From IMG/VR virus record IMGVR_UViG_3300045988_160427: 64,000 nt of DNA; one strand, 5' to 3'. Below the pieces are notes generated by a model. The model was not told the origin of the DNA. It saw only the letters and a list, made by a program, of their open reading frames with translations, and searched no databases. Positions within the stretch are counted from its first letter, which is position 1. Each line of letters opens with the position of its first letter. Positions 2,857 to 50,317 of this stretch are shown piece by piece. Source of the stretch: a virus. Made by a program: the position numbers and the translations under genes.

Positions 2857-3240
2857 ATGGAGGGAGTTTCAGATATAAAAAATGATTATCGAAATTTAGA
2901 AAAACGAATTGGGAAAACTGAAACAGGGTTAGCAAGAACTGAAATTCAAATAGCCAATTTAACATCTATTGTAGAACATAATAATGCGACTTTGGATGAT
3001 TTAAATGAAACTATGATAAAAACGAATTATTTATTGGAGCAAAATATTAAAGATGTGGAATACAATAGACAAATTGTTAAGAAAATGGAGGAAAACCTAA
3101 CGAAAGTAGAACACAACATTGAAGAAGTTGATGAAAAGAGCAAGGTTGATATTTTGGGTTTTTTAAAGAAAAATTTTCTTGTTATTGTTGTTTTTGGGGC
3201 TTTTGTATTTTATTATGTAAAAAGTTTATTACCGCTTTGA
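2857..3240 (+). CDS. coiled-coil protein with C-terminal transmembrane anchor
   Basis: RBS AGGAGGGGGG; hydrophobic C-terminus 'FLVIVVFGAFVFYYVKSLL'. Confidence 0.45.
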   Translation: MEGVSDIKNDYRNLEKRIGKTETGLARTEIQIANLTSIVEHNNATLDDLNETMIKTNYLLEQNIKDVEYNRQIVKKMEENLTKVEHNIEEVDEKSKVDILGFLKKNFLVIVVFGAFVFYYVKSLLPL

Positions 3241-3259
3241 TTATGATAGGAGGATATAA

Positions 3260-3652
3260 ATGGAAACATTTAATGATGTTATTATGACAGCGTTGCAAAC
3301 AATTATTACTGTTACCGTTCCATTGATTTCTGCGTTGATTGTATATGGGATTAAGAAAGCAACAAATTGGTTAAAAAGTAAAACAGAAAATGAAACAGTT
3401 GATACTTATTTAAATCGTGCATATTCTATGTTAGAAGATATTGTTGTTACAACCACGGAGACTTATGTTAAGTCTTTGAAAGCCGATGGCAAGTTTGATA
3501 TTGAAGAACAACAAAAGGCATTTGAAATTACAAAGAGCGCTTTTGAACAGGTGGCTAGTGAAGAAATTAAGAACGCGATTAAAACAACTGTGTCAGATTA
3601 TGATGCTTGGGTTAAGAACACAGTTGAGGCTATTATTGCTAATACAAAATAA
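3260..3652 (+). CDS. membrane protein (N-terminal TM helix)
   Basis: RBS TAGGAGG; N-terminal 'ALQTIITVTVPLISALIVYGI' hydrophobic segment. Confidence 0.45.
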   Translation: METFNDVIMTALQTIITVTVPLISALIVYGIKKATNWLKSKTENETVDTYLNRAYSMLEDIVVTTTETYVKSLKADGKFDIEEQQKAFEITKSAFEQVASEEIKNAIKTTVSDYDAWVKNTVEAIIANTK

Positions 3653-3714
3653 AATATTTAGTTAATTAGCAATCAAGTAGGAAAATATAAATTCCTACTT
3701 TTACATATTATGGA

Positions 3715-5208: not shown

Positions 5209-8200
5209 GTGGTATGTTTGGCTAGTAGCAATAATTATCATATTTTAGTTAAAGCAATATTAGATGAAAGTAATTTACAAGGGCAAATAAATAAAGCTGC
5301 TTCAAAAATAAAGAATGTTAAAATAGGAGACGCTGGAACAAAAACCGCAACTTCTGGATTCAATAAAATGAATCAAGCGATTGACAAAACAAGTCAATCT
5401 ATGAGTGATATTATCAAAAAGACTGTTAAGTGGCAGGCAGGAACGCAAGCTATTGATGCCATATATAATTCCTTTAGAAGTGGCGTTTCGGCTGTGTTTG
5501 AGTTAGATGCCGCAATGACTGAATTAAGGAAAGTCAGTGACTTAACTGGTGATGAACTAACAGAGTTTGGCGATAAAGCGTTAAAGGTTGGCGAACGTGT
5601 AGCTAGAACAGCAACTCAAGTTATTGAGGCGGCTACTGAATTCACAAAATCAGGTTTCAATGATATAGAGTCGTTGCAATTGGCTGAAGTTGCTTCGATG
5701 TTTCAAAATGTTGCGGATGAAGAAGTAAATGCAGGAGATGCGGCTTCTTTCTTGATTTCGCAAATGAAAGCTTTTAATATTACAGCGGAAGAGTCAGAAC
5801 ATATAGTAGATGCGGTCAATGAGGTAGCCAACAAATTTGCTGTATCTTCTGGCGATTTAGCTACAGCGGTTCCTAAAGTAGCGGCAACCATGGCGCAAGC
5901 GGGTAATAGTATGGAACAAACATTAGGTTTGCTTACCGCTGGTGCTGAAATGATGCCAGGACAGGCAAGCCGCGTCGCTAGAGGTTTAAGAAGTATAACT
6001 TTAAATCTACAAGCCATGGATGATTCTGGGCAACAAGATTTAGAGTTATTAGCCTCTATGGAGAAAGATTTTAATAAAATCGGGATAACATTACAAGGAA
6101 CAGATGGACAATTAAAATCCACTTTTGATATTTTATCAGAACTTGCAGAAGTTTGGGATACTTTAGATCAAAATACTAAAAATTATTATGCATCATTAAT
6201 AGGTGGGAAAACCCAAGTTGATGTTGTAAACAGTGTTATTTCTAATTTTGATAGTGCTTTGGGTGCGACTGAGGCTGGAATGAACTCTTTCGGATCAGCG
6301 GCTAGAGAAAATGCAGCCTATTTGGATTCTATCGAAGGTCGTATGTCTGCTCTTACGGCTCAATTTCAAAGATTCTTTACAGAAGGTATTAGTTCTGATT
6401 CAGTAAAGAATGTTCTGGGTTTGGCAACTGCCATTTTAGAGGTGGTAAATTCCATTGGTGGTTTACAAACATTTTTACCTATTATAATTAGTTTTGCAAC
6501 CATTTTCATAGGGAAACAATTTCCTAACGGTGTTAATAATTTAAAAAATAGTTTTACTAATTTATTACAGCCTTTGAAGGACTTACCGACTGCTATAAGC
6601 TTGGCAATAGGTGAGTTTACCAGATTAAAATCTAGTGGTGTGTCTTCTTTTTCTGCACTGGCAGGATCGGCATCTAGTTTCTTTAGTTTAATTGGTCCTG
6701 GGGCAATTATAGGCATAGGAGCAACTTTGTTTAGTGTTATTAATGGTGTAATTAATGCACAAGAAGAAGCTCATGCGCAAATGATACAAGATGCTGAACA
6801 AAAAAATTCCGAACTAAAAAGGCAAAGAGAATCTTTAGAAAAAGAAATTGCTTCCTATCAAGAATTAGCGGAAAAAAGGAATGATAGTTCTTCTGATACT
6901 GAAAGATTAAAATACAATGAAGAAATAGCACAAGTTCAAGAGAATATCGTTGATTTAGTTGGTGCTGAGGCCAATGGATTGGATTTAGTTAATGGAAATT
7001 TAGATGAGCAACTTTCCAAACTTGGTTCTCTACATGAAATTTTAACGGATAATCAAAAATTACAATTAGAACTTTTGATGCAAGATGCTGAAACAGATTA
7101 TAATGAATCTCTTGGAAGTATGGAGCAATTTTATGATGAAATTGCCACTATAACAGGGAAAACAGAAGAAGAGATTAGATCAGCTTTTGAATCTGGGTCT
7201 GATGAGATTTATGATTATATTTCCCAAACCAATAAAGAATTACAAAGACAAGCAAAAGAAAATGATAATTTTTATTTAGCAAATAATTTTGCTAATATGT
7301 CTCAAGACTTTTTAACAAAACAAGAAGCATATTATGATTATCAAAATCAATTGTTAGAAGCGAGCACATATGAACAAGAACAGATTCTTTCTGATTTCAT
7401 CAATGAGCGAGATGATTTATTCGCTAATGGAGAAATTGATTCCAAAGAGTCCTTGATGAAATTAGTAGAAGCTATCAAAGATGGAACATTAGACGTTGGT
7501 GAAGCAGCTCTTGAGGCAGGGGTTGATGTCAACACTTATCGTCAAAGGTTGCTTGAGCTTGTAGAAGAAAAATATGGTGCCAAGTTTGCTAATTCAATTT
7601 CCGAACTAAGGACAGTTATAAATGCTGAAGGTGAAGAAATTACTGCGGCGGCTACAGGTTTTGCAAAAAAAATAGAAGAAGCTTTAAAAATAGAACCAGA
7701 AACAGCTTCTTTAGAGACCTCAGTAGAAGGATATAAAAAATTATTAGAGAATGTTTCTTCGGGGAATTGGGGAGCTCAAACACAAGAGTTAATGTCTCTA
7801 TTTTTTGGTGAAGATTGGGTTCAACAATTTGATGGAGATTTGGAAACCGCTGGCAAACATGTTAAAGAGAAATGGGGTTCTTTTTTTCAATACTTCCAAG
7901 ATGGCAATTTTGGGAATTTTGCAAATATTATACAAAATTCTGGCGTTGATGCTGCTCTAGCATCTGTCGGTGCCGATGGTAGTTTAAATATAGATTTTTC
8001 TAGGTTGGATGAATTAGCTGCGAAACTTGGTGTTTCCAAAGAAATGCTAACCACCATTATGAAAGCATATGAACAGACTGGTGGAGTTATTAATTACGAA
8101 TTAGATGATATGATTGCTCGTGCTGAGCAATTGGGATTAATTACGGAAACTGCTTCTGGTAATTTTATTTCTTTGGGAGCTAATGCTCAAGAAGCTTTAG

Positions 8201-10266
8201 GCATGACCGATTTACAATTTGCGAATTTTAAAAAACAACTACAAGAGGCTGGATATCAAATTTTAGACTTAAATTCTTCTACGGATGACTGGTTATCTGT
8301 GCTAGAGGGAAATCATATTGTGGAAGTTATTGGAGATGCTAAAATTGGTGATTTGCCCTCTCTTGTTGCTTACTTGGAAGATTTGGGTTTCACTGATTCA
8401 CAAATACATGATGTTGTTAATAATTTACAAGTAACAGCTGGTGTAACTTTTAATGCTGATGGGAGTGAAACAACACCTGAACAGGTTCAGTCTGAGATAG
8501 ATAAGCTCGACCAAGAAGAAGCAAATGTTTATGTATTGGTCGGCGTGGAAGGGGAAGAACAAGTTGATTCCGCAAAGGAAAAAATTGATTCTATACCAAA
8601 TCAACAAACTAAAACAGTAACCATTAATGTTAAAACAAAAACCACAGGTCCCTTTTCTACGGAAAAAACAATAGATGATATAGCCAGAGAAGCAGGATAT
8701 GGTCGATTTTTAACCGAGGGAAACTGGACAGGAACTTCAGCGAATGGTGTGCCCAAAAATGAATTATCCTGGTTAGGAGAAAAAGGTCCTGAATTAGTAA
8801 CTGATAAAAAGGGTAAAAATGCTTATATAGCTGGATTAAATGGAGCAGAACTGGGTTATCTTCGTAAGGGTGATGTAGTTTATAATGCTAAAGATACTAG
8901 GGATATTTTAAGTGGTGTTGGTAACGTAGAAGGATTAGGAGATATAGATGAAAATTGGTCTGCTCCATCCGTGCCGAAAAAGAATACTAATACTGGAACC
9001 ACGTCTACTAAAAAAACATCTTCGTCTTCTTCGAATAATAATTCATCTTCTGATTCTGATGCTGAAAGAGAACAAGAAGAGGCGTTAAGAAGACAGAAAG
9101 AAAATTTTGAAGATGCATTAGATTATATTCAAGATTTAGCTGATAAAGAGATAGAAGCATTAGAAGAGCAAAAAAAAGAAGAACAAGAGTATTGGGATGC
9201 CAAGATAGAGGCATTGCAAAAGCAAAATGAGGAACTAGACAAACAACTTGAATTAGAAGAAGCGTTAGAAAACCTTGCTAAAGCACAAAATACAAGAGTT
9301 AGAATATATAGAGAAGGCCAAGGCTTTGTTTATGAAAGCGATATGGCCGCTGTTAATGAAGCACAAAAAGAATTAGATGATATAAAAAGAGAACAGGCCT
9401 ATGAAGAAGAATTAGAAAATTTAGAGAATCAAAAAGAAGCGGCAGAAGAAGCGATTGATGCACAAATTCAATACTGGGAAGATTACAAAGAATTATGGGA
9501 AGATGCTGCTAATTCTTATGAAAATAATCAAAAGCGTTTAATTGCTGAACAGTTATTTGGATTAAATCAGGAGCAAGAAAATTGGGAAAAACGTCTGGGG
9601 AATTTACAGAGTTTTGTAGACCAATATAATGCTATTCTGCAACAATTGGATGACAACTACATTTCTCCAGGCGGTAGTGGTTCTTCTGTTGGCACTGGGA
9701 AGGTTTCTAGTTCTAGTGGCACATTAAAGTCAGGGAGTCGTGGTGATGCCGTCAAGGCCCTACAAAATGCCTTAAATTCGTTGGGGTATGGAAATTTAGC
9801 TGTGGATGGAATCATGGGTTCAAAAACAGTAGCAGCCCTTAAAAGATTCCAAAAAGATTCTGGAATTAGTGCAGACGGGATAGTTGGCACTAATACTCGA
9901 AATGCTTTTGCTGCTAAGGGTTTTGCGTCTGGGAGTTCGTATATTCCCCGCAATATGATAGGGCGAATAAACGAAGATGGTAGCGAACTTTATATTCCAC
10001 CTGAACAAAATATTTTGGCTCCACTTAGCAAGGGTGCTGGAATTGTCCCACATACCTTGGCACAAAATTTAATGGAAATTGGGAAATATCATCCTTCTCA
10101 ATTGTTGAACGCTAGTGCTGTAAGTAATAAAGATAGCATTAGCAAAAACAATTATTTTAATTTTGATAAGCTCGTTTTGCCTAATGTAACCAATGCTGAA
10201 TCATTTGTTTCTACACTAAAGAACAATTTTATGTCAACTGCTATCCAGGTTGGGAGTTTTAGATGA
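5209..10266 (+). CDS. tail tape measure protein with C-terminal peptidoglycan-binding (PG_binding_1) domain
   Basis: 1685 aa, GTG start, long coiled-coil/KE-rich stretches, Ser-rich low-complexity tract, 'GDAVKALQNALNSLGYGNLAVDGIMGSKTVAALKRFQKDSGISADGIVGTNTRNAF' PG-binding repeat. Confidence 0.85.
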   Translation: MVCLASSNNYHILVKAILDESNLQGQINKAASKIKNVKIGDAGTKTATSGFNKMNQAIDKTSQSMSDIIKKTVKWQAGTQAIDAIYNSFRSGVSAVFELDAAMTELRKVSDLTGDELTEFGDKALKVGERVARTATQVIEAATEFTKSGFNDIESLQLAEVASMFQNVADEEVNAGDAASFLISQMKAFNITAEESEHIVDAVNEVANKFAVSSGDLATAVPKVAATMAQAGNSMEQTLGLLTAGAEMMPGQASRVARGLRSITLNLQAMDDSGQQDLELLASMEKDFNKIGITLQGTDGQLKSTFDILSELAEVWDTLDQNTKNYYASLIGGKTQVDVVNSVISNFDSALGATEAGMNSFGSAARENAAYLDSIEGRMSALTAQFQRFFTEGISSDSVKNVLGLATAILEVVNSIGGLQTFLPIIISFATIFIGKQFPNGVNNLKNSFTNLLQPLKDLPTAISLAIGEFTRLKSSGVSSFSALAGSASSFFSLIGPGAIIGIGATLFSVINGVINAQEEAHAQMIQDAEQKNSELKRQRESLEKEIASYQELAEKRNDSSSDTERLKYNEEIAQVQENIVDLVGAEANGLDLVNGNLDEQLSKLGSLHEILTDNQKLQLELLMQDAETDYNESLGSMEQFYDEIATITGKTEEEIRSAFESGSDEIYDYISQTNKELQRQAKENDNFYLANNFANMSQDFLTKQEAYYDYQNQLLEASTYEQEQILSDFINERDDLFANGEIDSKESLMKLVEAIKDGTLDVGEAALEAGVDVNTYRQRLLELVEEKYGAKFANSISELRTVINAEGEEITAAATGFAKKIEEALKIEPETASLETSVEGYKKLLENVSSGNWGAQTQELMSLFFGEDWVQQFDGDLETAGKHVKEKWGSFFQYFQDGNFGNFANIIQNSGVDAALASVGADGSLNIDFSRLDELAAKLGVSKEMLTTIMKAYEQTGGVINYELDDMIARAEQLGLITETASGNFISLGANAQEALGMTDLQFANFKKQLQEAGYQILDLNSSTDDWLSVLEGNHIVEVIGDAKIGDLPSLVAYLEDLGFTDSQIHDVVNNLQVTAGVTFNADGSETTPEQVQSEIDKLDQEEANVYVLVGVEGEEQVDSAKEKIDSIPNQQTKTVTINVKTKTTGPFSTEKTIDDIAREAGYGRFLTEGNWTGTSANGVPKNELSWLGEKGPELVTDKKGKNAYIAGLNGAELGYLRKGDVVYNAKDTRDILSGVGNVEGLGDIDENWSAPSVPKKNTNTGTTSTKKTSSSSSNNNSSSDSDAEREQEEALRRQKENFEDALDYIQDLADKEIEALEEQKKEEQEYWDAKIEALQKQNEELDKQLELEEALENLAKAQNTRVRIYREGQGFVYESDMAAVNEAQKELDDIKREQAYEEELENLENQKEAAEEAIDAQIQYWEDYKELWEDAANSYENNQKRLIAEQLFGLNQEQENWEKRLGNLQSFVDQYNAILQQLDDNYISPGGSGSSVGTGKVSSSSGTLKSGSRGDAVKALQNALNSLGYGNLAVDGIMGSKTVAALKRFQKDSGISADGIVGTNTRNAFAAKGFASGSSYIPRNMIGRINEDGSELYIPPEQNILAPLSKGAGIVPHTLAQNLMEIGKYHPSQLLNASAVSNKDSISKNNYFNFDKLVLPNVTNAESFVSTLKNNFMSTAIQVGSFR

Positions 10267-40295: not shown

Positions 40296-41810
40296 TTATT
40301 CTTCTTCTTTTATAAAAGTTTTTGGTATTGAATTTAAATAATTATTCTTTTCATCGGTGCAAAATAAATCCTTTGCCCTTCCAGTGTTGAAGTCAAAACT
40401 TTGCCAAACTTTAATGTTTTGTCCATATTGCGAATATCTAGCTTTATAGACATGAGTAATAATATTTGGCTCAGTTTTTTCTTCTAATCGTTTTCTATTA
40501 ATTATTGTTTGCATCAAAGATAATTCTGATTTTTTAGGTTTCAAAACAATACAGCCATTATCTAACTTTGTTTTCAATTGTTTACTTCCAAATAAACAAT
40601 TTTCATCAATAACATCGTTGTTTTTCTCGTTACCATTTAATTGAGTCATAGATAATAAACCCAAACTATAATCTTCGGCACACATTTTTAATTCATTAGC
40701 AATAGCTAACAATAACATATCTTGTCTCAATGATGTGCCTATTCTTTCTTTGTAATCCTTACCGACAATTCCGTTGTCCCATATATAATCAAATACGCCA
40801 AATTTACAATGATGAATAATTGCACATTCTTTAATAACCCTTCTTAAATTCGTTAAAGTGAAGTCAGGCATATCAATTAATCTTATATTTGATTTTCTTA
40901 AAATTTTCCCAGCTTCAATTAATCTATCTTTTTCTTCTTCTGTGAATTTGCCATCTAAAATTTTATGTGTGGGAATATCAGCTATATAAGCAATAAAGCG
41001 AGGCTGTAATTCTCTTTCTTGTTCCATTTCAGTATGAATATAAAAACCATTTCCTTGGTAATTATGATTTTTAACAAAATCTTTTTTATCTTTATCCCAT
41101 AAATGAGTAACACTAACTTTACATAAATCGCCTATTGCTGCCGATGTCTTACCAAAACCTGAAGGAGCCGAACGCATTAATAGATGTCCTCTTTGCCATC
41201 CTCTATAAATAGAAGTAAGATAAGGTGAATTTAAACAAGCACCAAAAGATGGTTCTTTTTGAAATTCTTCTAAAACTTTGGTAAACCCTTCTCCTGCCCA
41301 CATTTCAGCACGCACATTTCTATTATCAAATTTAGTTCTTAGTTGATTATATTTACTTTCATAAAAATTTAATATATCTTTAATAGAATATTGGTTTAGT
41401 TTTCCAAAATTTATTTCGCCTTTTTCATTTTCTTCGTAAATTTCTGAAATATCTACTCCCATTTCTTTATACTGTCTTAACAAACTTAATTTTCTAACAT
41501 TGTTATAATAAATTTCATAATTATTAGCGTTCGCTAATTCTTTGACTGTGGAAATAAATTCTAAAAAATTATTATCTTCTAAAACTTCGTATTGAGGTTT
41601 ATAATGTTTACAAAAATTATCCACCATTATTTCATCTATTTCCATAGCACCTTCAGAAGCTAAGTGCAGAATGGCTGAAAATAGTATCATGTGAAATGTA
41701 CAAGGTTCAAAATCATCTTTATTAATTGGAAACTTTTTGTTAAGTAGTAAATCTGTATTATTCATTAAACATCCAAGGGTCATATATGCGTCATTAAAAG
41801 AATAAATCAT
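40296..41810 (-). CDS. dnaB: replicative DNA helicase DnaB-like
   Basis: Walker A 'SAPSGFGKTSAA'; 504 aa. Confidence 0.75.
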   Translation of the reverse strand: MIYSFNDAYMTLGCLMNNTDLLLNKKFPINKDDFEPCTFHMILFSAILHLASEGAMEIDEIMVDNFCKHYKPQYEVLEDNNFLEFISTVKELANANNYEIYYNNVRKLSLLRQYKEMGVDISEIYEENEKGEINFGKLNQYSIKDILNFYESKYNQLRTKFDNRNVRAEMWAGEGFTKVLEEFQKEPSFGACLNSPYLTSIYRGWQRGHLLMRSAPSGFGKTSAAIGDLCKVSVTHLWDKDKKDFVKNHNYQGNGFYIHTEMEQERELQPRFIAYIADIPTHKILDGKFTEEEKDRLIEAGKILRKSNIRLIDMPDFTLTNLRRVIKECAIIHHCKFGVFDYIWDNGIVGKDYKERIGTSLRQDMLLLAIANELKMCAEDYSLGLLSMTQLNGNEKNNDVIDENCLFGSKQLKTKLDNGCIVLKPKKSELSLMQTIINRKRLEEKTEPNIITHVYKARYSQYGQNIKVWQSFDFNTGRAKDLFCTDEKNNYLNSIPKTFIKEEE

Positions 41811-41832
41811 TTTAATCTCCTTTTTAACATAA

Positions 41833-42321
41833 TTAAATTTTGTTTTTCAATCTTTGATAATAACTTTTAGATGTATTATTGATAAAAACAACTTTTTCAT
41901 TGAAATCAATATTTTTAAATTTTTCTTGATTATTTAAACATTTCTTGGTATAGTCCAGTGCTTCTTGATAATATTGTGGAAACACTTGCCCCAATCCCAA
42001 AGAAGTATCAAAATTTTTTTCTAAAATTAATACGTAATATCTAAGGGTGAGAAGTATTTCAGCATCAGTCCAACCATATTCTTTCTTATAATGTTTAATT
42101 TGTGACATAATCCAAGGCCAATTACACTGATTTTGATATAACTCTTGAATATAATCAGTTAAATTGTAATGATATTCAGTATTTTTTGTTTCGTTTTTAT
42201 TTTTTATATAGTTATTATAACAATTTAGATCACAAAAATACATTTTATCTTTTGTCGGATGTTTATAAGAATTCTCTTTTTTAATTTCTTTTTTGCAATT
42301 TCTACATTTCACAGTTTGCAT
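41833..42321 (-). CDS. zinc-finger hypothetical protein
   Basis: 'CRNCKK...CDLNC'. Confidence 0.4.
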   Translation of the reverse strand: MQTVKCRNCKKEIKKENSYKHPTKDKMYFCDLNCYNNYIKNKNETKNTEYHYNLTDYIQELYQNQCNWPWIMSQIKHYKKEYGWTDAEILLTLRYYVLILEKNFDTSLGLGQVFPQYYQEALDYTKKCLNNQEKFKNIDFNEKVVFINNTSKSYYQRLKNKI

Positions 42322-42409
42322 ATTAAATCTACCTTCTTATAATTATTTCTTATCAATAATTATATCAGAAAATATATAAAAGTCAACATGTTTATTAATT
42401 TTATAATTT

Positions 42410-42441
42410 AAAAATCCCTACGAATAAATGTAGGGATTTTT
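42410..42441. terminator. 12-bp perfect inverted repeat (bidirectional terminator/attenuator inside replication operon)
   Basis: AAAAATCCCTAC-8 nt-GTAGGGATTTTT. Confidence 0.55.
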
Positions 42442-42450
42442 AAATGTTAA

Positions 42451-43512
42451 TTAATATGAAATATCATAATCCATAGCTAAATTATTTAATTTTGTATAAA
42501 TGTTTGCTAATTTTTGTACCTCATCTTTTTGTGCTGAAGAAACTTTCCGAATGAGACCATTTTCATCCACACCCAATTCTTCTGCCACGATTTCTTGCAC
42601 TCTCTCGGGCGCCACAACGAAAACTTTTTCCATCACGGAAGGAATAATTTCTAAATAATCTTTTAAATCAAATTTATCATCAACTTTTTTAAACGGTGTC
42701 AGTTGACAATCTGCTTCTTCTGCGCTTTTTTTAATTGCTTCTAACATTGTTTTTTGAATAGTTTCAGCAGAAAAATTCTCAACAATCACTGGCATATTGT
42801 AACGACTTCTTGCAAAAATTGTTTGTGTTTGTTTACAAATAGCGCTAGAAGCGATGGGATCACCATCTTTATCGATTCCATTAGGTCTTGTATAAATGAC
42901 AAAATCACATAAATTTCTTAAAAATCTTGTTGACCCTTTTTCTTTTTCAGTCCCAAAAGGCACAATGAAATTTTTTGTCACAACTCTTGTTTTTCCATTG
43001 TTATCAATGATTTCTTCTTTCTTTTCCACTTCTTCTTCATGTGAAATAAAAATAACAGTATATCCACACGAAGTTAACATATTAATTTGATTTCGAAACA
43101 TTTTTCTTGCTAATAAATACCCATTTGGATTTCTATTATTCCTATCATTTGGATTCTGCACTAAACCAATATCATTCACATCATACATTTTGCACACTTG
43201 CGCTTCACAAATATTAACCAATTCCTCTGCTGTGTCAATAATAATGGTATTATATAATTCATGTGCTTTATCATACATATTTACTAATTGATTATTAATT
43301 GTTACGAAAGTATTCCAATCTCTAATAGCAAATTTAGGACAATTTACTGCATTCCCCCCATTTTCTGCCATTAATAGAAGAGGTTTCGGAAATTTACAGG
43401 ATTGTTTCGTTTTTCCTGTATCATTAGGACCATAAAACATAATCTTCTGTCCAGATAAATCCATAACCATTTCTTTATTTTGCACTGCAAAAATATTAAT
43501 TTTACTACTCAT
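42451..43512 (-). CDS. AAA_24 (Sak4-like) phage recombination ATPase
   Basis: 'IMFYGPNDTGKTKQ' Walker A directly at N-terminus, 'IIIDTAEEL' Walker B. Confidence 0.6.
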   Translation of the reverse strand: MSSKINIFAVQNKEMVMDLSGQKIMFYGPNDTGKTKQSCKFPKPLLLMAENGGNAVNCPKFAIRDWNTFVTINNQLVNMYDKAHELYNTIIIDTAEELVNICEAQVCKMYDVNDIGLVQNPNDRNNRNPNGYLLARKMFRNQINMLTSCGYTVIFISHEEEVEKKEEIIDNNGKTRVVTKNFIVPFGTEKEKGSTRFLRNLCDFVIYTRPNGIDKDGDPIASSAICKQTQTIFARSRYNMPVIVENFSAETIQKTMLEAIKKSAEEADCQLTPFKKVDDKFDLKDYLEIIPSVMEKVFVVAPERVQEIVAEELGVDENGLIRKVSSAQKDEVQKLANIYTKLNNLAMDYDISY

Positions 43513-45480: not shown

Positions 45481-46176
45481 TTATTCACTTTTTCCAAACC
45501 ATTGATTTCCTATTTTAATTCTATCCACGCCTCCGCATTTCCCCGCTGAAAAGAATATATAATTCCCATTTAAAACAGTTGCACCATGCTCTAACACATA
45601 ATCAACGGCATCATAATTTTCTTGTGTTGGTTTTGTAGAAGATAATTTAGAAGCAGTAGAAAACTGTCCTTTTTGATAAATAACTCCTCTAATTGTGTCT
45701 GGATACTTAGAATCTAATACACGATTTAAAACTACTTCTACCACTGCTTTCTGGCCTTTAAAACTTTCACCCCCAGCTTCTCTTTTTACCAATTGAGCCA
45801 ATAGTTTTCTATCACTTTCACTCACTTTAATATTTTTATATTTTCCATTTCCATTAATAGATTCATCTATATTTGTATCTTCTTCTAGCTGATAGTTTTT
45901 AGGATTTTGACTTGTAGTATTAACTTCCTGTGTAATAGTAGGTTGTGGAGTACTCGTAGGTGTCGCAGTGGGTGTGGAAACAGGTGATGTAATAGCACTC
46001 TCTGTAGGCACAGGTATAGGTTCTTGCGTTACTGTTGAAATTGATTCGGTCACAATATTTTCAAAATTAAAATCTTTTTTAAATCTTGTAAATATTGCCA
46101 CCCCTATGATAATACTAAACAATATGATACATTGTACCACCTTCTTTTCAATAATCAATTTAATAATTTTTTTCAT
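45481..46176 (-). CDS. SleB/CwlJ-like cell wall hydrolase with N-terminal TM and Pro/Thr-rich linker
   Basis: 'VVLNRVLDSKYPDTIRGVIYQKGQFS' Hydrolase_2 signature. Confidence 0.65.
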   Translation of the reverse strand: MKKIIKLIIEKKVVQCIILFSIIIGVAIFTRFKKDFNFENIVTESISTVTQEPIPVPTESAITSPVSTPTATPTSTPQPTITQEVNTTSQNPKNYQLEEDTNIDESINGNGKYKNIKVSESDRKLLAQLVKREAGGESFKGQKAVVEVVLNRVLDSKYPDTIRGVIYQKGQFSTASKLSSTKPTQENYDAVDYVLEHGATVLNGNYIFFSAGKCGGVDRIKIGNQWFGKSE

Positions 46177-46194
46177 TTATAATAAACTCCTTAC

Positions 46195-47010
46195 TTATAA
46201 TGCAATAGACAACATTACATTTTTAATTTTTTCTTCTTTCACTTTGGAATATCTTTCAGTTGTTTTTATAGACTTATGACCAATTGTTTCTTGGGCAACT
46301 CTAATACCATAATTATCACAAATATCACTGACAAAAGTATATCTTAAACTATGATTTGTAATATTTTTGGTCATTCCTGCTCTTTTCGCAATATTTTTCA
46401 ATGTTCTATTTATACACTCTGGGCGCATTGGAGTCCCTTGATTGGAAACAAACAAATTCTCTGCGCCATTTTTCCTAGTTTCAAGATATTTATCAACATA
46501 TTCTTTACAAGATTGATTTAAAAAAATTCGTCTAAAGCTTCCACCTTTTGTTTCAATATAAATATCATTTTGTAGATATTGCTCCAAAGTGATTCTTATT
46601 AACTCGGAAACCCGCAATCCTGTACTTAAATACATTGCAATAATAGCTTTATCTCTTGCATTTTTTCCATAGGAAATTAAAGCAGTTGCTTCTTCCATTG
46701 GAATATAAGGTTTTTCTTTATTTTTAACCTTTACATTTTTCAAGTTTTTTGCTGGATTTAATACTATTCTATTAATATCATATAAAAAATTAAAATATCC
46801 TTTAATAGCACTAATTTTTCTATAAATAGAAGATGAAGCATATTTGTTTAAATTTGCTTTCCATAAAACTAAATCTTCAACTGTAATTTCATCTTCTTTT
46901 TTGTTTACAAAAGATAACATATCTCGAATATCATTTTGATAATTTACTAATGTGTTTTTTGACTTTCCTTCACCTTGTAAATTCCTCAAATACAATTCCA
47001 AATTTTCCAT
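46195..47010 (-). CDS. tyrosine site-specific recombinase (XerD-like)
   Basis: 'GLRVSEL' (Arg), 'HSLRYTF', 'GHKSIKTTERY' (His/Tyr) catalytic signature. Confidence 0.8.
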   Translation of the reverse strand: MENLELYLRNLQGEGKSKNTLVNYQNDIRDMLSFVNKKEDEITVEDLVLWKANLNKYASSSIYRKISAIKGYFNFLYDINRIVLNPAKNLKNVKVKNKEKPYIPMEEATALISYGKNARDKAIIAMYLSTGLRVSELIRITLEQYLQNDIYIETKGGSFRRIFLNQSCKEYVDKYLETRKNGAENLFVSNQGTPMRPECINRTLKNIAKRAGMTKNITNHSLRYTFVSDICDNYGIRVAQETIGHKSIKTTERYSKVKEEKIKNVMLSIAL

Positions 47011-47131
47011 TTTTTCTCCTCGCTTTCAATGATATTATAGCATAGAACATCACCCCTTTCAATAGTAAAATAAATAATTATTAATAAAAATTTTTATCAA
47101 ATTTATTTTTAAAACAATATATCCCGCTTAT

Positions 47132-47683
47132 TTATACCTTCCATATCATGTCCTCGTTTAGATCATATTCTTCTTTTGGTAATTTTGTAAAAACATTATT
47201 TTGATCAATCATATCTTCTATAAATAAAGGGCTATGATTTTTATTAGAAAAATAATTCTTCATATCACTAGGATCAATTATACAATTTCCTCCCGGCCGA
47301 TAAGCAATGCTCCAAGGTGATCCACTTACGTGTGTCATATCTACAAGAGTACTCGCAGTATATTTTCCGTAATTAACCGCAACACACATCAATAACGAAA
47401 GTTCTTCTTCATCAAACATATCAACATCAAAAGCATCATCAACAACATCTATTGCCGATTTACCGCAGTACTGATACTTTTTGTAGACATCTCTTACAAC
47501 AGGGCCTAAATCCCAAGCTTCTATTTTGTCAGAAAACAATGAGCGACCTAATTTTGCATAAGCATATCCTTGTGCAAAATACAATAATTCATTTAGTTTT
47601 AAGTTAGACACAGCATCTTCTGTATCTTTCCATAATAAGATAAAATAGTTTGCTACATCATAAGCTTTTTTCAATTTAATCAC
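47132..47683 (-). CDS. Panacea-domain (DUF4065, SocA-like) antitoxin-type protein
   Basis: 'AYDVANYFI...SNLKLNELLYFAQGYAYAKLGRSLFSDKIEAWDLGPVVRDVY' matches the conserved Panacea core (KLxKLLYFAQ...G.PLF...EAW..GPV). Confidence 0.7.
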   Translation of the reverse strand: MIKLKKAYDVANYFILLWKDTEDAVSNLKLNELLYFAQGYAYAKLGRSLFSDKIEAWDLGPVVRDVYKKYQYCGKSAIDVVDDAFDVDMFDEEELSLLMCVAVNYGKYTASTLVDMTHVSGSPWSIAYRPGGNCIIDPSDMKNYFSNKNHSPLFIEDMIDQNNVFTKLPKEEYDLNEDMIWKV

Positions 47684-47756
47684 CTCTTTTTTATATTTTT
47701 GTTGCGATTAAAAAGAATTAAATTATAAAATTACTTATATTAATTCTAATAAATAA

Positions 47757-47787
47757 TTTTAGAACCTATTTTTCATAGGTTCTAAAA
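47757..47787. terminator. 13-bp perfect inverted repeat hairpin between small ORF and Panacea gene
   Basis: TTTTAGAACCTAT-ttttc-ATAGGTTCTAAAA; overlaps 3' end of small ORF. Confidence 0.5.
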
Positions 47788-47921
47788 TTATAAATATTAA
47801 AAAACATTGTAGCAATTTGATGAGCTCTAAGGTGTTCTAAACTTACGGTTGCACCATCTTTATCACCTTTGCGGATACCATTTTGTTTTAGCCATTTAAT
47901 CATTTTTCCTTTTGTGTTCAT
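47766..47921 (-). CDS. small protein (51 aa) upstream of Panacea gene; candidate cognate partner
   Basis: ATG with GAGAGGAG RBS; 'MIKWLKQNGIRKGDKDGATVSLEHLRAHQ' loosely HicA-like; below ORF-track cutoff. Confidence 0.3.
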   Translation of the reverse strand: MNTKGKMIKWLKQNGIRKGDKDGATVSLEHLRAHQIATMFFNIYNFRTYEK

Positions 47922-47996: not shown

Positions 47997-48156
47997 TTAT
48001 TTGCTCACTCTTTCAAGTTCGTCTAAACAGTTTAAAAGACTTCTAATGTGTTCTATATTATCCATATTTTTATCATCACGAATGTTTTGAAAAAAATACA
48101 TCTTAATAAACTCTACTAGATTTTTTGCATCACCTTTATCAATTTTAAGTTCAAAC
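47997..48156 (-). CDS. small hypothetical protein
   Basis: internal Met of listed 47997..48254 ORF; higher local GC. Confidence 0.3.
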
Positions 48157-48159
48157 ATT

Positions 48160-48435
48160 TTAATCCTCCAAATCCATCTTTGCTCCGCAATTGGGGCAAT
48201 AGTTTGATTTCTGTTTTGTTTCATGCCCACAACATTTGCACATCCAACCCTCAAGTTCCCTATATGCGTTAATTATAGGTTCCCATTCTCCATGCATAAC
48301 AAGCGCAACATCAACAGTTGGCACATCCTGTAGCAAGTAGACTGACCTTACCCACGTTTCGCAATCTATTTCTTTTCTATTCGCCGCTATTGTTATCGTA
48401 TTCTCCAGTTCTTTCCATTCTATGCATTTAGCCAT
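48160..48435 (-). CDS. zinc-ribbon protein (paralog of 23907..24251)
   Basis: 'VMHGEWE' and 'CKCCG...NYCPNCGAKMD'. Confidence 0.45.
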   Translation of the reverse strand: MAKCIEWKELENTITIAANRKEIDCETWVRSVYLLQDVPTVDVALVMHGEWEPIINAYRELEGWMCKCCGHETKQKSNYCPNCGAKMDLED

Positions 48436-48498
48436 TGTTTAACCCTCCAACATATCCAGCGCTTCCATTTCCGGCCCGGCAATGTATAGTTTCATTCA

Positions 48499-49041
48499 TT
48501 ATACCTCGTTTCCCCAACAGTCCCAACCGCTAACTTCTTGTCTTGCGAACAATTCTATTCGCGGCGCGTAAGAGACTTTTTCTATCATTTCTCGCATTGT
48601 TTCCGGCTTTCTGCTATGAATTGTTTTTGGCTCATAAAAACCCGTTATCCCCTGTTGCCGTTTTTCATCAATCACCTTATACGGCAGGCGTTTATGTGTG
48701 GACGCGAAAATACAATGTTCTGTAATTCCTCTAAAATACTGTCCTAGCCCTATCTTGTCCTTTGTCCACGTTATCAAGGTAATATATTCAAATCCCCATT
48801 TTTTGAGAAGGTAAAAAGCATCTTGGAGAAAATTGTTTGTTGCCCACATATACAGGTGGCATCCTTCCGCATCTGCTAACCGCTCAACTGGAATTTCGGC
48901 AATATCTTTTGTTTTCATCAGCGGATAATGATTGTCCGCTCCTCTTTTGATTTTCCCACCACCTCTCTCCATCCATGGCGGGTCAAGATAGATTGTTTTA
49001 TATCGTTTTTGAGTTGCGTATATATCAACTTTCATTTTCAT
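48499..49041 (-). CDS. MT-A70 family N6-adenine DNA methyltransferase
   Basis: 'IYLDPPWMERGGG' DPPW catalytic motif. Confidence 0.75.
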   Translation of the reverse strand: MKMKVDIYATQKRYKTIYLDPPWMERGGGKIKRGADNHYPLMKTKDIAEIPVERLADAEGCHLYMWATNNFLQDAFYLLKKWGFEYITLITWTKDKIGLGQYFRGITEHCIFASTHKRLPYKVIDEKRQQGITGFYEPKTIHSRKPETMREMIEKVSYAPRIELFARQEVSGWDCWGNEV

Positions 49042-49044
49042 TTC

Positions 49045-49497
49045 TCACTTTCCAAAATATAACCACCAACGATAAAAGGACGCATTGACAGTCATGTTTT
49101 TAAGCTCTTTAATCTCCTTATTGTTCTCGATGTAAACCTCAATTTGAGACTGAACAAGAGTATCGGATTTAAGCTCAGGGTAAAGGGTAACAAGTGTTAT
49201 AGCACTTTCAGGAGCAATATCTTTAAAGATGCCACTTTCGTATTCCTGATATTGCTTTACCACATCTGTAATTTGCTGCTCGATTCCGACATTTTCCTCC
49301 TCATACATGGCAATTTTTTTGTCAATGCCAATTCGGTCAACTACACATCCAAGCAACAAAACGACAACTATAATTGAGGCTAAGCTGACAACGGCACCAA
49401 TGATTTGAAACGCAACGCCAACAATCGGTTTATCGAGTTCGAGCTTAATTCCCCAAACAGCCATTAGAATACCCAGGACGAGAATGACAATAATCAT
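49045..49497 (-). CDS. membrane protein
   Basis: two N-terminal hydrophobic helices. Confidence 0.4.
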   Translation of the reverse strand: MIIVILVLGILMAVWGIKLELDKPIVGVAFQIIGAVVSLASIIVVVLLLGCVVDRIGIDKKIAMYEEENVGIEQQITDVVKQYQEYESGIFKDIAPESAITLVTLYPELKSDTLVQSQIEVYIENNKEIKELKNMTVNASFYRWWLYFGK

Positions 49498-49512
49498 ATT
49501 TAATCTCCTTTC

Positions 49513-49695
49513 TTATTCCTTTTTAGTCATCACATCAAATTTTGTGAGACAACTTTTACAAATATTTTCTTTGATGTACATATTTGAAATTTTCTTCCAG
49601 ACCTTTGCTTTTCTATAGCCTTCTAGCCAAATATAACGTTTGCATTCAAGGCATAAATGCGGAACGAACGCAAATCGATTACAAGAAAGCATCAT
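49513..49695 (-). CDS. small Cys-containing protein
   Basis: 'CLECK...CKSC'. Confidence 0.3.
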   Translation of the reverse strand: MMLSCNRFAFVPHLCLECKRYIWLEGYRKAKVWKKISNMYIKENICKSCLTKFDVMTKKE

Positions 49696-50317
49696 TATTT
49701 TCTTCTCCTAATACAATTTCTTTAAAATGAGGCAATGCTTCAATCCAGTCACAAAAATTTTTCCATTCTTCTAAACGATGATTTTTCCTTGCGTGATAAA
49801 TATTATAAAGCACTTCATAATTAGCACACCAAGTATATTTTACATTATATCCTTGTGGTAATAATTCTCTAATCATTCTAAAAATTTTAATATCTTTATT
49901 TTTCAAATAATTTTCTCTTAAAAAATTCAATGTATTAATTATTTTTAACAATTCAGATTCAGCACCATTTTCAATACTAAAATCTTCTAAAGAAAAAGGC
50001 TTTGATACTCCTTTGTGCATGAAACTACATGAATTTCTTGTGGTTCCAATTTTATATGTATCATGTTCAGCAACCCAAAATAGCGGTGCAACAATGTTAC
50101 ATTGCACTGGCAACATTCTCATGAACTTCCTATGATCTGGACCTGCTTCACAAAGTTTTTTCATAAGATTTTTATCATTTTTCCCCAAAACAAAAAGTCC
50201 ATCTAAAATAACACTATCACTTTTTTCCCACGAGTTTAATGGATTTCTTGCTCCTAATATAACATTTTTCCACTGTTCCGCACTGGGTGTGATTACATTA
50301 TTAATTTGAATAGACAT
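49679..50317 (-). CDS. ThyX-like (flavin-dependent thymidylate synthase fold) protein, divergent
   Basis: 'HRKF...IVAPLFWVAEHDTYKIGTTRNSCSF' parallels ThyX 'H..PFEH...[25 protein letters not shown]' but RHR/SxRY residues not conserved. Confidence 0.3.
   Translation of the reverse strand: MSIQINNVITPSAEQWKNVILGARNPLNSWEKSDSVILDGLFVLGKNDKNLMKKLCEAGPDHRKFMRMLPVQCNIVAPLFWVAEHDTYKIGTTRNSCSFMHKGVSKPFSLEDFSIENGAESELLKIINTLNFLRENYLKNKDIKIFRMIRELLPQGYNVKYTWCANYEVLYNIYHARKNHRLEEWKNFCDWIEALPHFKEIVLGEENNDAFL

Follow-up and report, generated by a model that had tools for sequence, protein, structure and literature searches.

The window analysed here, a 64,000-nt stretch of IMG/VR virus record IMGVR_UViG_3300045988_160427, carries on its minus strand an intact Panacea-domain antitoxin gene (panA, 47132..47674) with no toxin gene beside it. 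Comparison with prophage loci that encode nearly the same antitoxin indicates that panA very probably descends from a PanA-PemK toxin-antitoxin (TA) pair whose toxin was lost. That the orphan would neutralise PemK-type toxins in trans, as a counter-defence, is a reading drawn from sequence and analogy that we regard as evenly poised. The gene belongs to two known groups, the PanA antitoxins and the phage orphan antitoxins.

A preliminary description of this DNA had placed a phage-encoded Panacea (DUF4065) protein lacking an obvious toxin neighbour at 47132-47683. The ORF list contains exactly this frame (47132..47683; 183 aa with a GTG start) and puts it on the minus strand, a detail which that description had not given; the phage encoding and the missing toxin neighbour hold as well. 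A Pfam profile search confirmed the family, with PF13274 (SocA_Panacea) matching at E=5.9e-18 and 66.3 bits against a cutoff of 25.7 and covering profile positions 1-112 of 113. The domain spans residues 30-124 of the 183-aa ORF (47312..47596, minus strand) and contains the W-x-x-GPV and T-H motifs; the motif quoted originally (NLKLNELLYFAQGYAYAKLG...EAWDLGPVV..VY) is indeed present, GPV signature included. A PHROG family of unknown function, phrog_1281, covers residues 5-178 (E=1.5e-42). In a 20-sequence alignment the columns W54, G57, P58, V59, T114 and H115 (180-aa numbering) are invariant, and G57, P58 and V59 are unchanged in all orphan alleles too. The GPV signature is critical for neutralisation (Kurata et al. 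2022, PMC8832971).

Because the GTG sits inside a Shine-Dalgarno sequence, GAGGTG (47681..47686, minus strand), located 6 nt upstream of a TTG at 47674, and relatives are annotated from the equivalent TTG or ATG, the real panA product is probably 180 aa long and starts at TTG 47674 (47132..47674 with the stop codon included, as supported by the ORF list and PF13274). In a three-way alignment the same GAGGTG is found in contig L002, and L001 has GAGGCG at this position. No convincing promoter was returned by a scan directly upstream of panA, and Rfam and tRNA scans around the gene gave nothing relevant, with no RNA antitoxin or toxin detected. No PADLOC defence-system model matches PanA or the 51-aa ORF that precedes it.

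Two other signals at this locus were discarded. A 51-aa antisense ORF inside panA (47452..47607, plus strand) is not a gene, since its conservation only reflects the conserved coding sequence opposite. Likewise, a phmmer search with PanA matched WD40-repeat proteins in the PDB (E=2.5e-09), an artefact in which the score is the sum of sub-threshold repeat matches to a single 32-residue stretch, residues 113-144 (SPWSIAYRPGGNCIIDPSD vs SVWGVAFSPDGQTIASASD).

The origin of the gene can be read from its edges. By blastn, window positions 47717..47117 correspond to 2009..2612 of L001, a stretch of 600 bp in common; in L001 the toxin gene has its start at 2585. Homology sets in 34 nt upstream of the mechanical GTG, or 43 nt ahead of the TTG, which places the ribosome-binding site in the captured piece; the upstream region that belongs to the cassette itself is absent from the window. 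At the other end, homology stops 28 nt into the toxin gene. What is left there is a PemK/MazF-like toxin gene remnant (47117..47144, minus strand, from blastn and the three-way alignment) whose GTG overlaps the panA 3′ end. Its 9 codons, GTG-GAA-GGT-ATA-AAT-AAG-CGG-GAT-ATA, read M-E-G-I-N-K-R-D-I against M-E-G-I-N-T-W-D-I in the intact toxin, and the residual frame ends after 11 codons at 47109. This junction is common to all orphan relatives. Beyond the stub the window diverges into A+T-rich sequence with a strong promoter-like site. A tblastn search with the PemK toxin returned no homologue elsewhere in the 64-kb window, which may lack a few kb of the genome, and no close PemK homologue was seen in IMG/VR contigs, including the 70-kb relative of the window phage. 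A complete PanA-PanT (PanAT) module is thus not what the window holds: there is no adjacent cognate toxin and only 9 codons of one are left, whereas the module is intact in relatives.

These relatives define the likely source. In a large protein database the window PanA has three close protein clusters, P0001, P0002 and P0003, with 94%, 89% and 84% identity, respectively. P0001 is encoded after an endolysin and a holin, and its gene overlaps a 108-aa downstream gene matching PemK_toxin. A toxin 96% identical to the P0001-linked one (P0020) is found on at least 24 gut-metagenome contigs; in the listed places PanA is immediately upstream of it, its 3′ end overlapping the toxin start (10/10), and the pair stands behind a holin wherever the contig reaches that far. 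The more complete contigs are prophages with ends that abut bacterial genes and tRNAs, or an integrase. The PemK assignment comes from Pfam (1.6e-07 and 1.5e-09); phmmer of P0020 against the PDB gave no match. PemK-paired panA copies are 0-5 nt apart from each other and differ from the window gene at 18/543 nt, equivalent to 10/180 residues at the protein level, with a nearly identical core.

The cassette has 34% G+C within prophages of 46-60% G+C and is bracketed by 92-109-nt direct repeats, which are duplications of the holin 3′ end and terminator (1774-1865 and 2928-3019 in L001; 5183-5291 and 6339-6447 in L021). Given its near-identical copies, its composition relative to the surroundings and these repeats, the cassette is by all appearances a recently and widely transferred moron of low-G+C origin, and evidently circulates almost clonally behind the lysis genes of gut Firmicutes prophages. 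Diverged PanAs are also accompanied by homologous PemK toxins (L010 at 45% identity, P0005/L037 at 38%), which argues that PemK pairing is ancestral for the subclade and that the toxin-less state is derived. Other distant PanAs pair with a ParE-like toxin or an unknown protein, and the PanAs of cultured temperate phages are likewise paired. In L001, a RelE-like and HTH_3/MqsA-like TA-like pair lies on the opposite strand (3043..3707) directly after PanA-PemK, so that the two pairs make up a small TA island.

To our knowledge, PanA is the most promiscuous antitoxin family, and its members are known only as halves of TA pairs. The window protein agrees with the type II PanAT systems (Kurata et al. 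2022, PMC8832971; Ernits et al. 2023, PMC10440598) in its PF13274 domain with GPV and T-H motifs, in its size and single-domain architecture and, through its relatives, in a position upstream of and overlapping a PemK_toxin gene. The closest PanA:PanT pairs involve the MazF/PemK-like RNase toxins of P. moraviensis and B. ruminantium. Some PanAs possess a neutralising C-terminal extension, and an extension of similar kind is predicted here. Unlike PanAT, the window is without a toxin gene, and the carrier, instead of being a chromosome or a moron site in a prophage, appears to be a self-replicating and probably virulent phage. The Panacea domain is also shared with SocA, the type VI antitoxin of Caulobacter that acts as a ClpXP adaptor for SocB. 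The NCBIfam SocA_antitoxin model (NF047745) matched with E=1.9e-20 and 73.3 bits against an equivalog cutoff of 190; since 73 bits fall far below that value, the window PanA is a Panacea protein and not a SocA orthologue. No SocB-like toxin is present beside panA, the cognate toxin family being PemK.

Panacea folds are compact and α-helical, with helices α1-7 and a two-strand β-hairpin β1-2 (PMC10440598), and an AlphaFold2 model of the window PanA built with 20 homologues has this fold (pTM 0.81, core pLDDT above 90). The predicted core consists of helices plus a β-hairpin that holds the GPV signature (strands E52-54 and E57-59) and is confident to about residue 148. A fused domain in the C-terminal 70 aa, which the preliminary description had suggested looking for, does not appear in the model; after the core there is a weak short helix (152-160) and then a disordered tail over residues 159-180 with pLDDT below 50. 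Foldseek of the PanA model against the PDB returned nothing with E below 1, that is, no solved Panacea-like structure.

The predicted tail (47135..47200, minus strand; ...VFTKLPKEEYDLNEDMIWKV) is acidic and aromatic, and we regard it as the candidate PemK-binding element. It resembles the disordered, tryptophan-containing C-terminus of MazE that occupies the MazF groove, a likeness that serves as a lead. A tail motif, h-x-h-L-P-[KR]-[DE], is common to three diverged PemK-paired PanAs and is lacking in two further PanAs examined, one paired with a ParE-like toxin and the other with an unknown toxin. Both modes of neutralisation have precedents: a stand-alone Panacea domain can neutralise directly via its β-hairpin/T-H surface, and in other PanAs neutralisation can fall to a C-terminal extension such as Phd-C (PMC10440598).

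Orphan copies are intact 180-codon ORFs in 9/9 cases, corresponding to 5 distinct alleles, and the ribosome-binding site is identical in one relative compared (L002). The flanks are 98-100% identical to those of L008, and within panA identity drops to 84-90%. The differences are block-wise, falling in nt 120-300, 300-420 or 420-540 depending on the pair. The alleles look like recombinant mosaics and point to repeated recombination with an unsampled PanA allele pool. Pairwise dN/dS is 0.14-0.43 for most panA pairs and the deeper comparisons show a synonymous excess (p=0.0001-0.014), a purifying signal that is not assignable to the orphan state because much of the mosaic divergence was probably imported, perhaps from paired alleles. 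On the window branch 11 substitutions are unique, 7 non-synonymous and 4 synonymous, and are indistinguishable from neutral. Nine of the 11 fall in codons 144-173 (p=2e-5), most simply explained as another imported tract. Of the amino-acid changes, 5/7 are in or just before the putative toxin-binding tail and could represent decay rather than adaptation. In a neutral simulation about 75 substitutions leave the frame stop-free in 13% of cases, and the intact ORF was consequently rejected as a proof of selection (P=0.13 under neutrality). The orphan is present and intact in every sampled relative, among genomes in which the accessory genes just upstream come and go, and selection on the orphan state is short of proof. 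When the window panA is compared with those of L002, L004, L008, L009 and L020, stretches of 120-180 nt at 10-17% divergence are found beside stretches at 0-2%.

Judging from its gene content, the carrier is a phage that brings along its own genes for replication. Encoded in the window are a tape measure protein, tail proteins, an endolysin, DnaB, RecJ, a RecD-like helicase, an anaerobic NrdD and a PolIII-alpha-type polymerase of 1309 aa; the G+C content is 31%. Polymerases of Enterocloster bolteae phages share 51% identity with the window enzyme and those of SPbeta-like phages 41%, the closest being that of Enterocloster phage PMBT24, which is reported as virulent and has 32.1% G+C (PMC11035940). 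At the panA locus the PMBT24 backbone (L030) matches that of the window, with a SleB-like hydrolase, a XerD-like recombinase and, further upstream, a DNA methyltransferase. PanA was not found in PMBT24 at this same backbone locus, so that for these phages it counts as an accessory insertion. The window phage is probably virulent, a lifestyle read solely from similarity to PMBT24 because a Pfam scan of 10 early-region proteins gave no hits to a repressor or lysogeny module.

No match to the 3.7-kb neighbourhood was obtained by megablast against cultured phages. The order 51-aa ORF, panA, recombinase, hydrolase is the same as in the window on the contigs that encode P0002 (a cluster of 167 member sequences) and P0003, as well as on the IMG/VR contigs L008 (70 kb) and L009.

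The immediate downstream neighbour of panA is a XerC/XerD-like tyrosine recombinase (46195..47010, minus strand) with a Pfam Phage_integrase match (1.1e-26) and a SAM-like N-domain, for which all NCBIfam Xer models are below cutoff. Since a syntenic XerD is found in the virulent PMBT24, this gene is poor evidence for lysogeny; it is probably not a lysogeny integrase and may resolve dimers or concatemers. It is probably driven by the promoter-like site in the sequence that replaces the toxin gene (47034..47062, minus strand), a consensus match of 11/12 with the form TTGAAA-17-TG-TATAAT. The short XerD-like recombinase and the SleB-type cell-wall hydrolase next to it (spore-cortex-lytic-enzyme family) occupy 45481..47010 of the window and are syntenic with 41635..43152 of PMBT24.

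On the other side, a four-gene block (47998..49738) consists of an 85-aa ORF, a 91-aa zinc-ribbon protein, an MT-A70 DNA methyltransferase (48499..49041) and a 150-aa protein; it is missing from the otherwise 98%-identical L008 and L002, and L009 has the block plus an extra insert. The region directly upstream of panA is a hot spot for accessory genes, possibly an anti-restriction or counter-defence islet.

An anti-defence role had been proposed for this gene from the outset, and the proposal now has a concrete basis in the near-identical antitoxin of the prophage PanA-PemK pair and in the toxin stub, the function itself being one that we infer. In a cell with the PanA-PemK cassette or with a PemK toxin related to it, infection by the phage would normally release the RNase and be aborted. 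PanA made by the phage would then refill the antitoxin pool and bind the toxin directly, in type II fashion, and the phage would escape PemK-based defence. Binding could occur through the disordered acidic, aromatic C-terminal tail, and the globular Panacea core, with its GPV β-hairpin and T-H motif, could stabilise or add to the PanA-toxin complex. The captured piece of 600 bp, comprising the ribosome-binding site, the full antitoxin and 28 nt of the toxin, lies amid leftward-transcribed replication and accessory genes.

PanA is known to neutralise MazF/PemK-like RNases by direct binding (PMC8832971). For the case at hand we infer further that the orphan is expressed and still binds a PemK toxin, that the prophage cassette defends against phage and that this phage meets the cassette. 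Contact of that kind is plausible, as the 34% G+C of the cassette is close to the 31% of the phage, unlike the 46-60% of the prophages in which it now resides, and PMBT24, with 32% G+C, illustrates that phages of such composition infect gut Lachnospiraceae (PMC11035940).

Other explanations for the orphan have to be weighed against this. The preliminary description had alternatively put forward a compact TA pair in which the 51-aa ORF upstream of panA encodes the toxin, an arrangement that we now find very improbable. This small conserved phage protein (47766..47921, minus strand) is encoded next to panA and in the same direction, both in the window and in all close relatives, and PanA does pair with many unrelated toxins, small ones included (PMC8832971). 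However, in every paired relative examined the toxin gene lies downstream of panA and overlaps it, never upstream like this ORF, which is a backbone gene and lies beyond the 600 bp that the window has in common with the true cassette (homology begins at 47717). It is moreover parted from panA by 82 nt and by a strong hairpin with a 16-bp stem (47754..47790, minus strand) that overlaps its stop codon. The hairpin has a predicted fold of -25 kcal/mol over 107 nt (z = -6.68, with 0/200 shuffles as good) and would be a terminator-like or processing element, missed by a consensus terminator scan because the stem is A+T-rich. The ORF has its own kin, a family of 44-52-aa proteins with the consensus TKGxMIKxLKxxGIRKGDKxGAxVxLEHLK, one member of which occurs without PanA (L035). 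Its AlphaFold2 model is a confident soluble helix / β-hairpin / helix (pLDDT 91.6) with no membrane segment; Foldseek gave no significant fold match for it, and searches of Pfam, PADLOC, PHROG and NCBIfam linked it to no toxin.

The main rival, which we consider unlikely, is that a cassette or a fragment of it was once acquired, the toxin was lost or never captured, and the antitoxin is a functionless, neutral remnant that has not yet decayed. The 7:4 ratio on the window branch fits the neutral expectation of a 0.30 synonymous fraction, an open frame would survive about 75 neutral substitutions with P=0.13, the unique changes are concentrated in the putative toxin-binding tail and immediately ahead of it, and there is no clear dedicated panA promoter; the backbones, at 0-2% divergence, may also leave little time since capture. 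Against such a remnant, all nine copies are intact and the L002 ribosome-binding site is the same even though the upstream accessory genes turn over, the full-length gene is still there after repeated allele exchange at the locus, and the synonymous excess in the deeper comparisons is significant. Phage genomes of this kind, besides, rarely keep useless DNA. Still less probable, in our judgment, is that the orphan neutralises a non-PemK host toxin, or that its Panacea core has a toxin-independent part in sensing or regulating a process of the phage or the host. PanA specificity can be redirected by two substitutions (PMC8832971) and a sensory role for Panacea was proposed by Ernits et al. (PMC10440598); most of the other orphan alleles have clustered changes (K50D/N, A53V, D55E and 69-86) by the GPV β-hairpin, which forms a neutralisation interface in stand-alone PanAs (PMC10440598). 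The window allele, in contrast, is only 10/180 residues away from a PemK-paired antitoxin, and the gene neighbourhood indicates no alternative partner.

Phage orphan antitoxins of other folds offer the closest parallels to the proposed counter-defence. The window resembles them in encoding an antitoxin homologue with no cognate toxin along its 64 kb (a few kb of the genome may be lacking), the matching TA pair being found on at least 24 contigs, the fuller of which are prophages of gut bacteria, the putative hosts. AimX and YosL are MazE-like orphans with which SPbeta-like phages block the host MazF of B. subtilis, and MazEF defends against phage lacking them (bioRxiv 10.1101/2023.04.27.537455); their target belongs to the same PemK/MazF superfamily as the toxin matching the window PanA. 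T4 Dmd, acting against RnlA/LsoA, is likewise a phage antitoxin without a toxin, as are the orphan DarG-like enzymes of T4-like phages and chimalliviruses (PMC11825919, PMC13309987), those of T4-like phages countering DarTG (PMC11825919). As in these phages, panA sits among accessory and anti-restriction-type genes. The fold differs, Panacea as opposed to MazE, Dmd or a macrodomain, and so does the unusually explicit trail, made of near-identical DNA and a toxin stub.

In the literature searched we found no paper linking DUF4065/Panacea to anti-defence. We tentatively advance, at slightly less than even confidence, a fuller picture in which Panacea would serve as a counter-defence for the first time: a gut phage, probably virulent, took the antitoxin alone from a prophage PanA-PemK module of the abortive-infection type and expresses it under its own programme so that the toxin is defused. 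The mosaic alleles at this single locus, in genomes that are 98-100% identical elsewhere, would then be the trace of a continuing arms race with variants of the toxin or sensor, and the orphan alleles could even be "trigger-blind" versions of a sensor-antitoxin. The locus offers a natural matched set, namely a near-clonal prophage PanA-PemK cassette and phages with the same antitoxin, no toxin and mosaic alleles, that bears on what Panacea senses and on whether PanAT modules act against phages under natural conditions. Should the orphan prove able to neutralise the toxin, Panacea would become one of the few antitoxin folds employed by phages for counter-defence, the result would argue that the prophage cassette is a real anti-phage system, and the alleles would make a series for specificity mapping, C-terminal tail versus the region of the GPV hairpin. 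Otherwise the locus is an ordinary TA remnant.

Elsewhere in the window, a C-terminal segment (residues ~1498-1570) of the tape measure protein (5209..10266) matches an endolysin-associated repeat that is found three times at the N-terminus of the phage endolysin (21614..22990). The repeat is probably a cell-wall-binding module shared by the two proteins.
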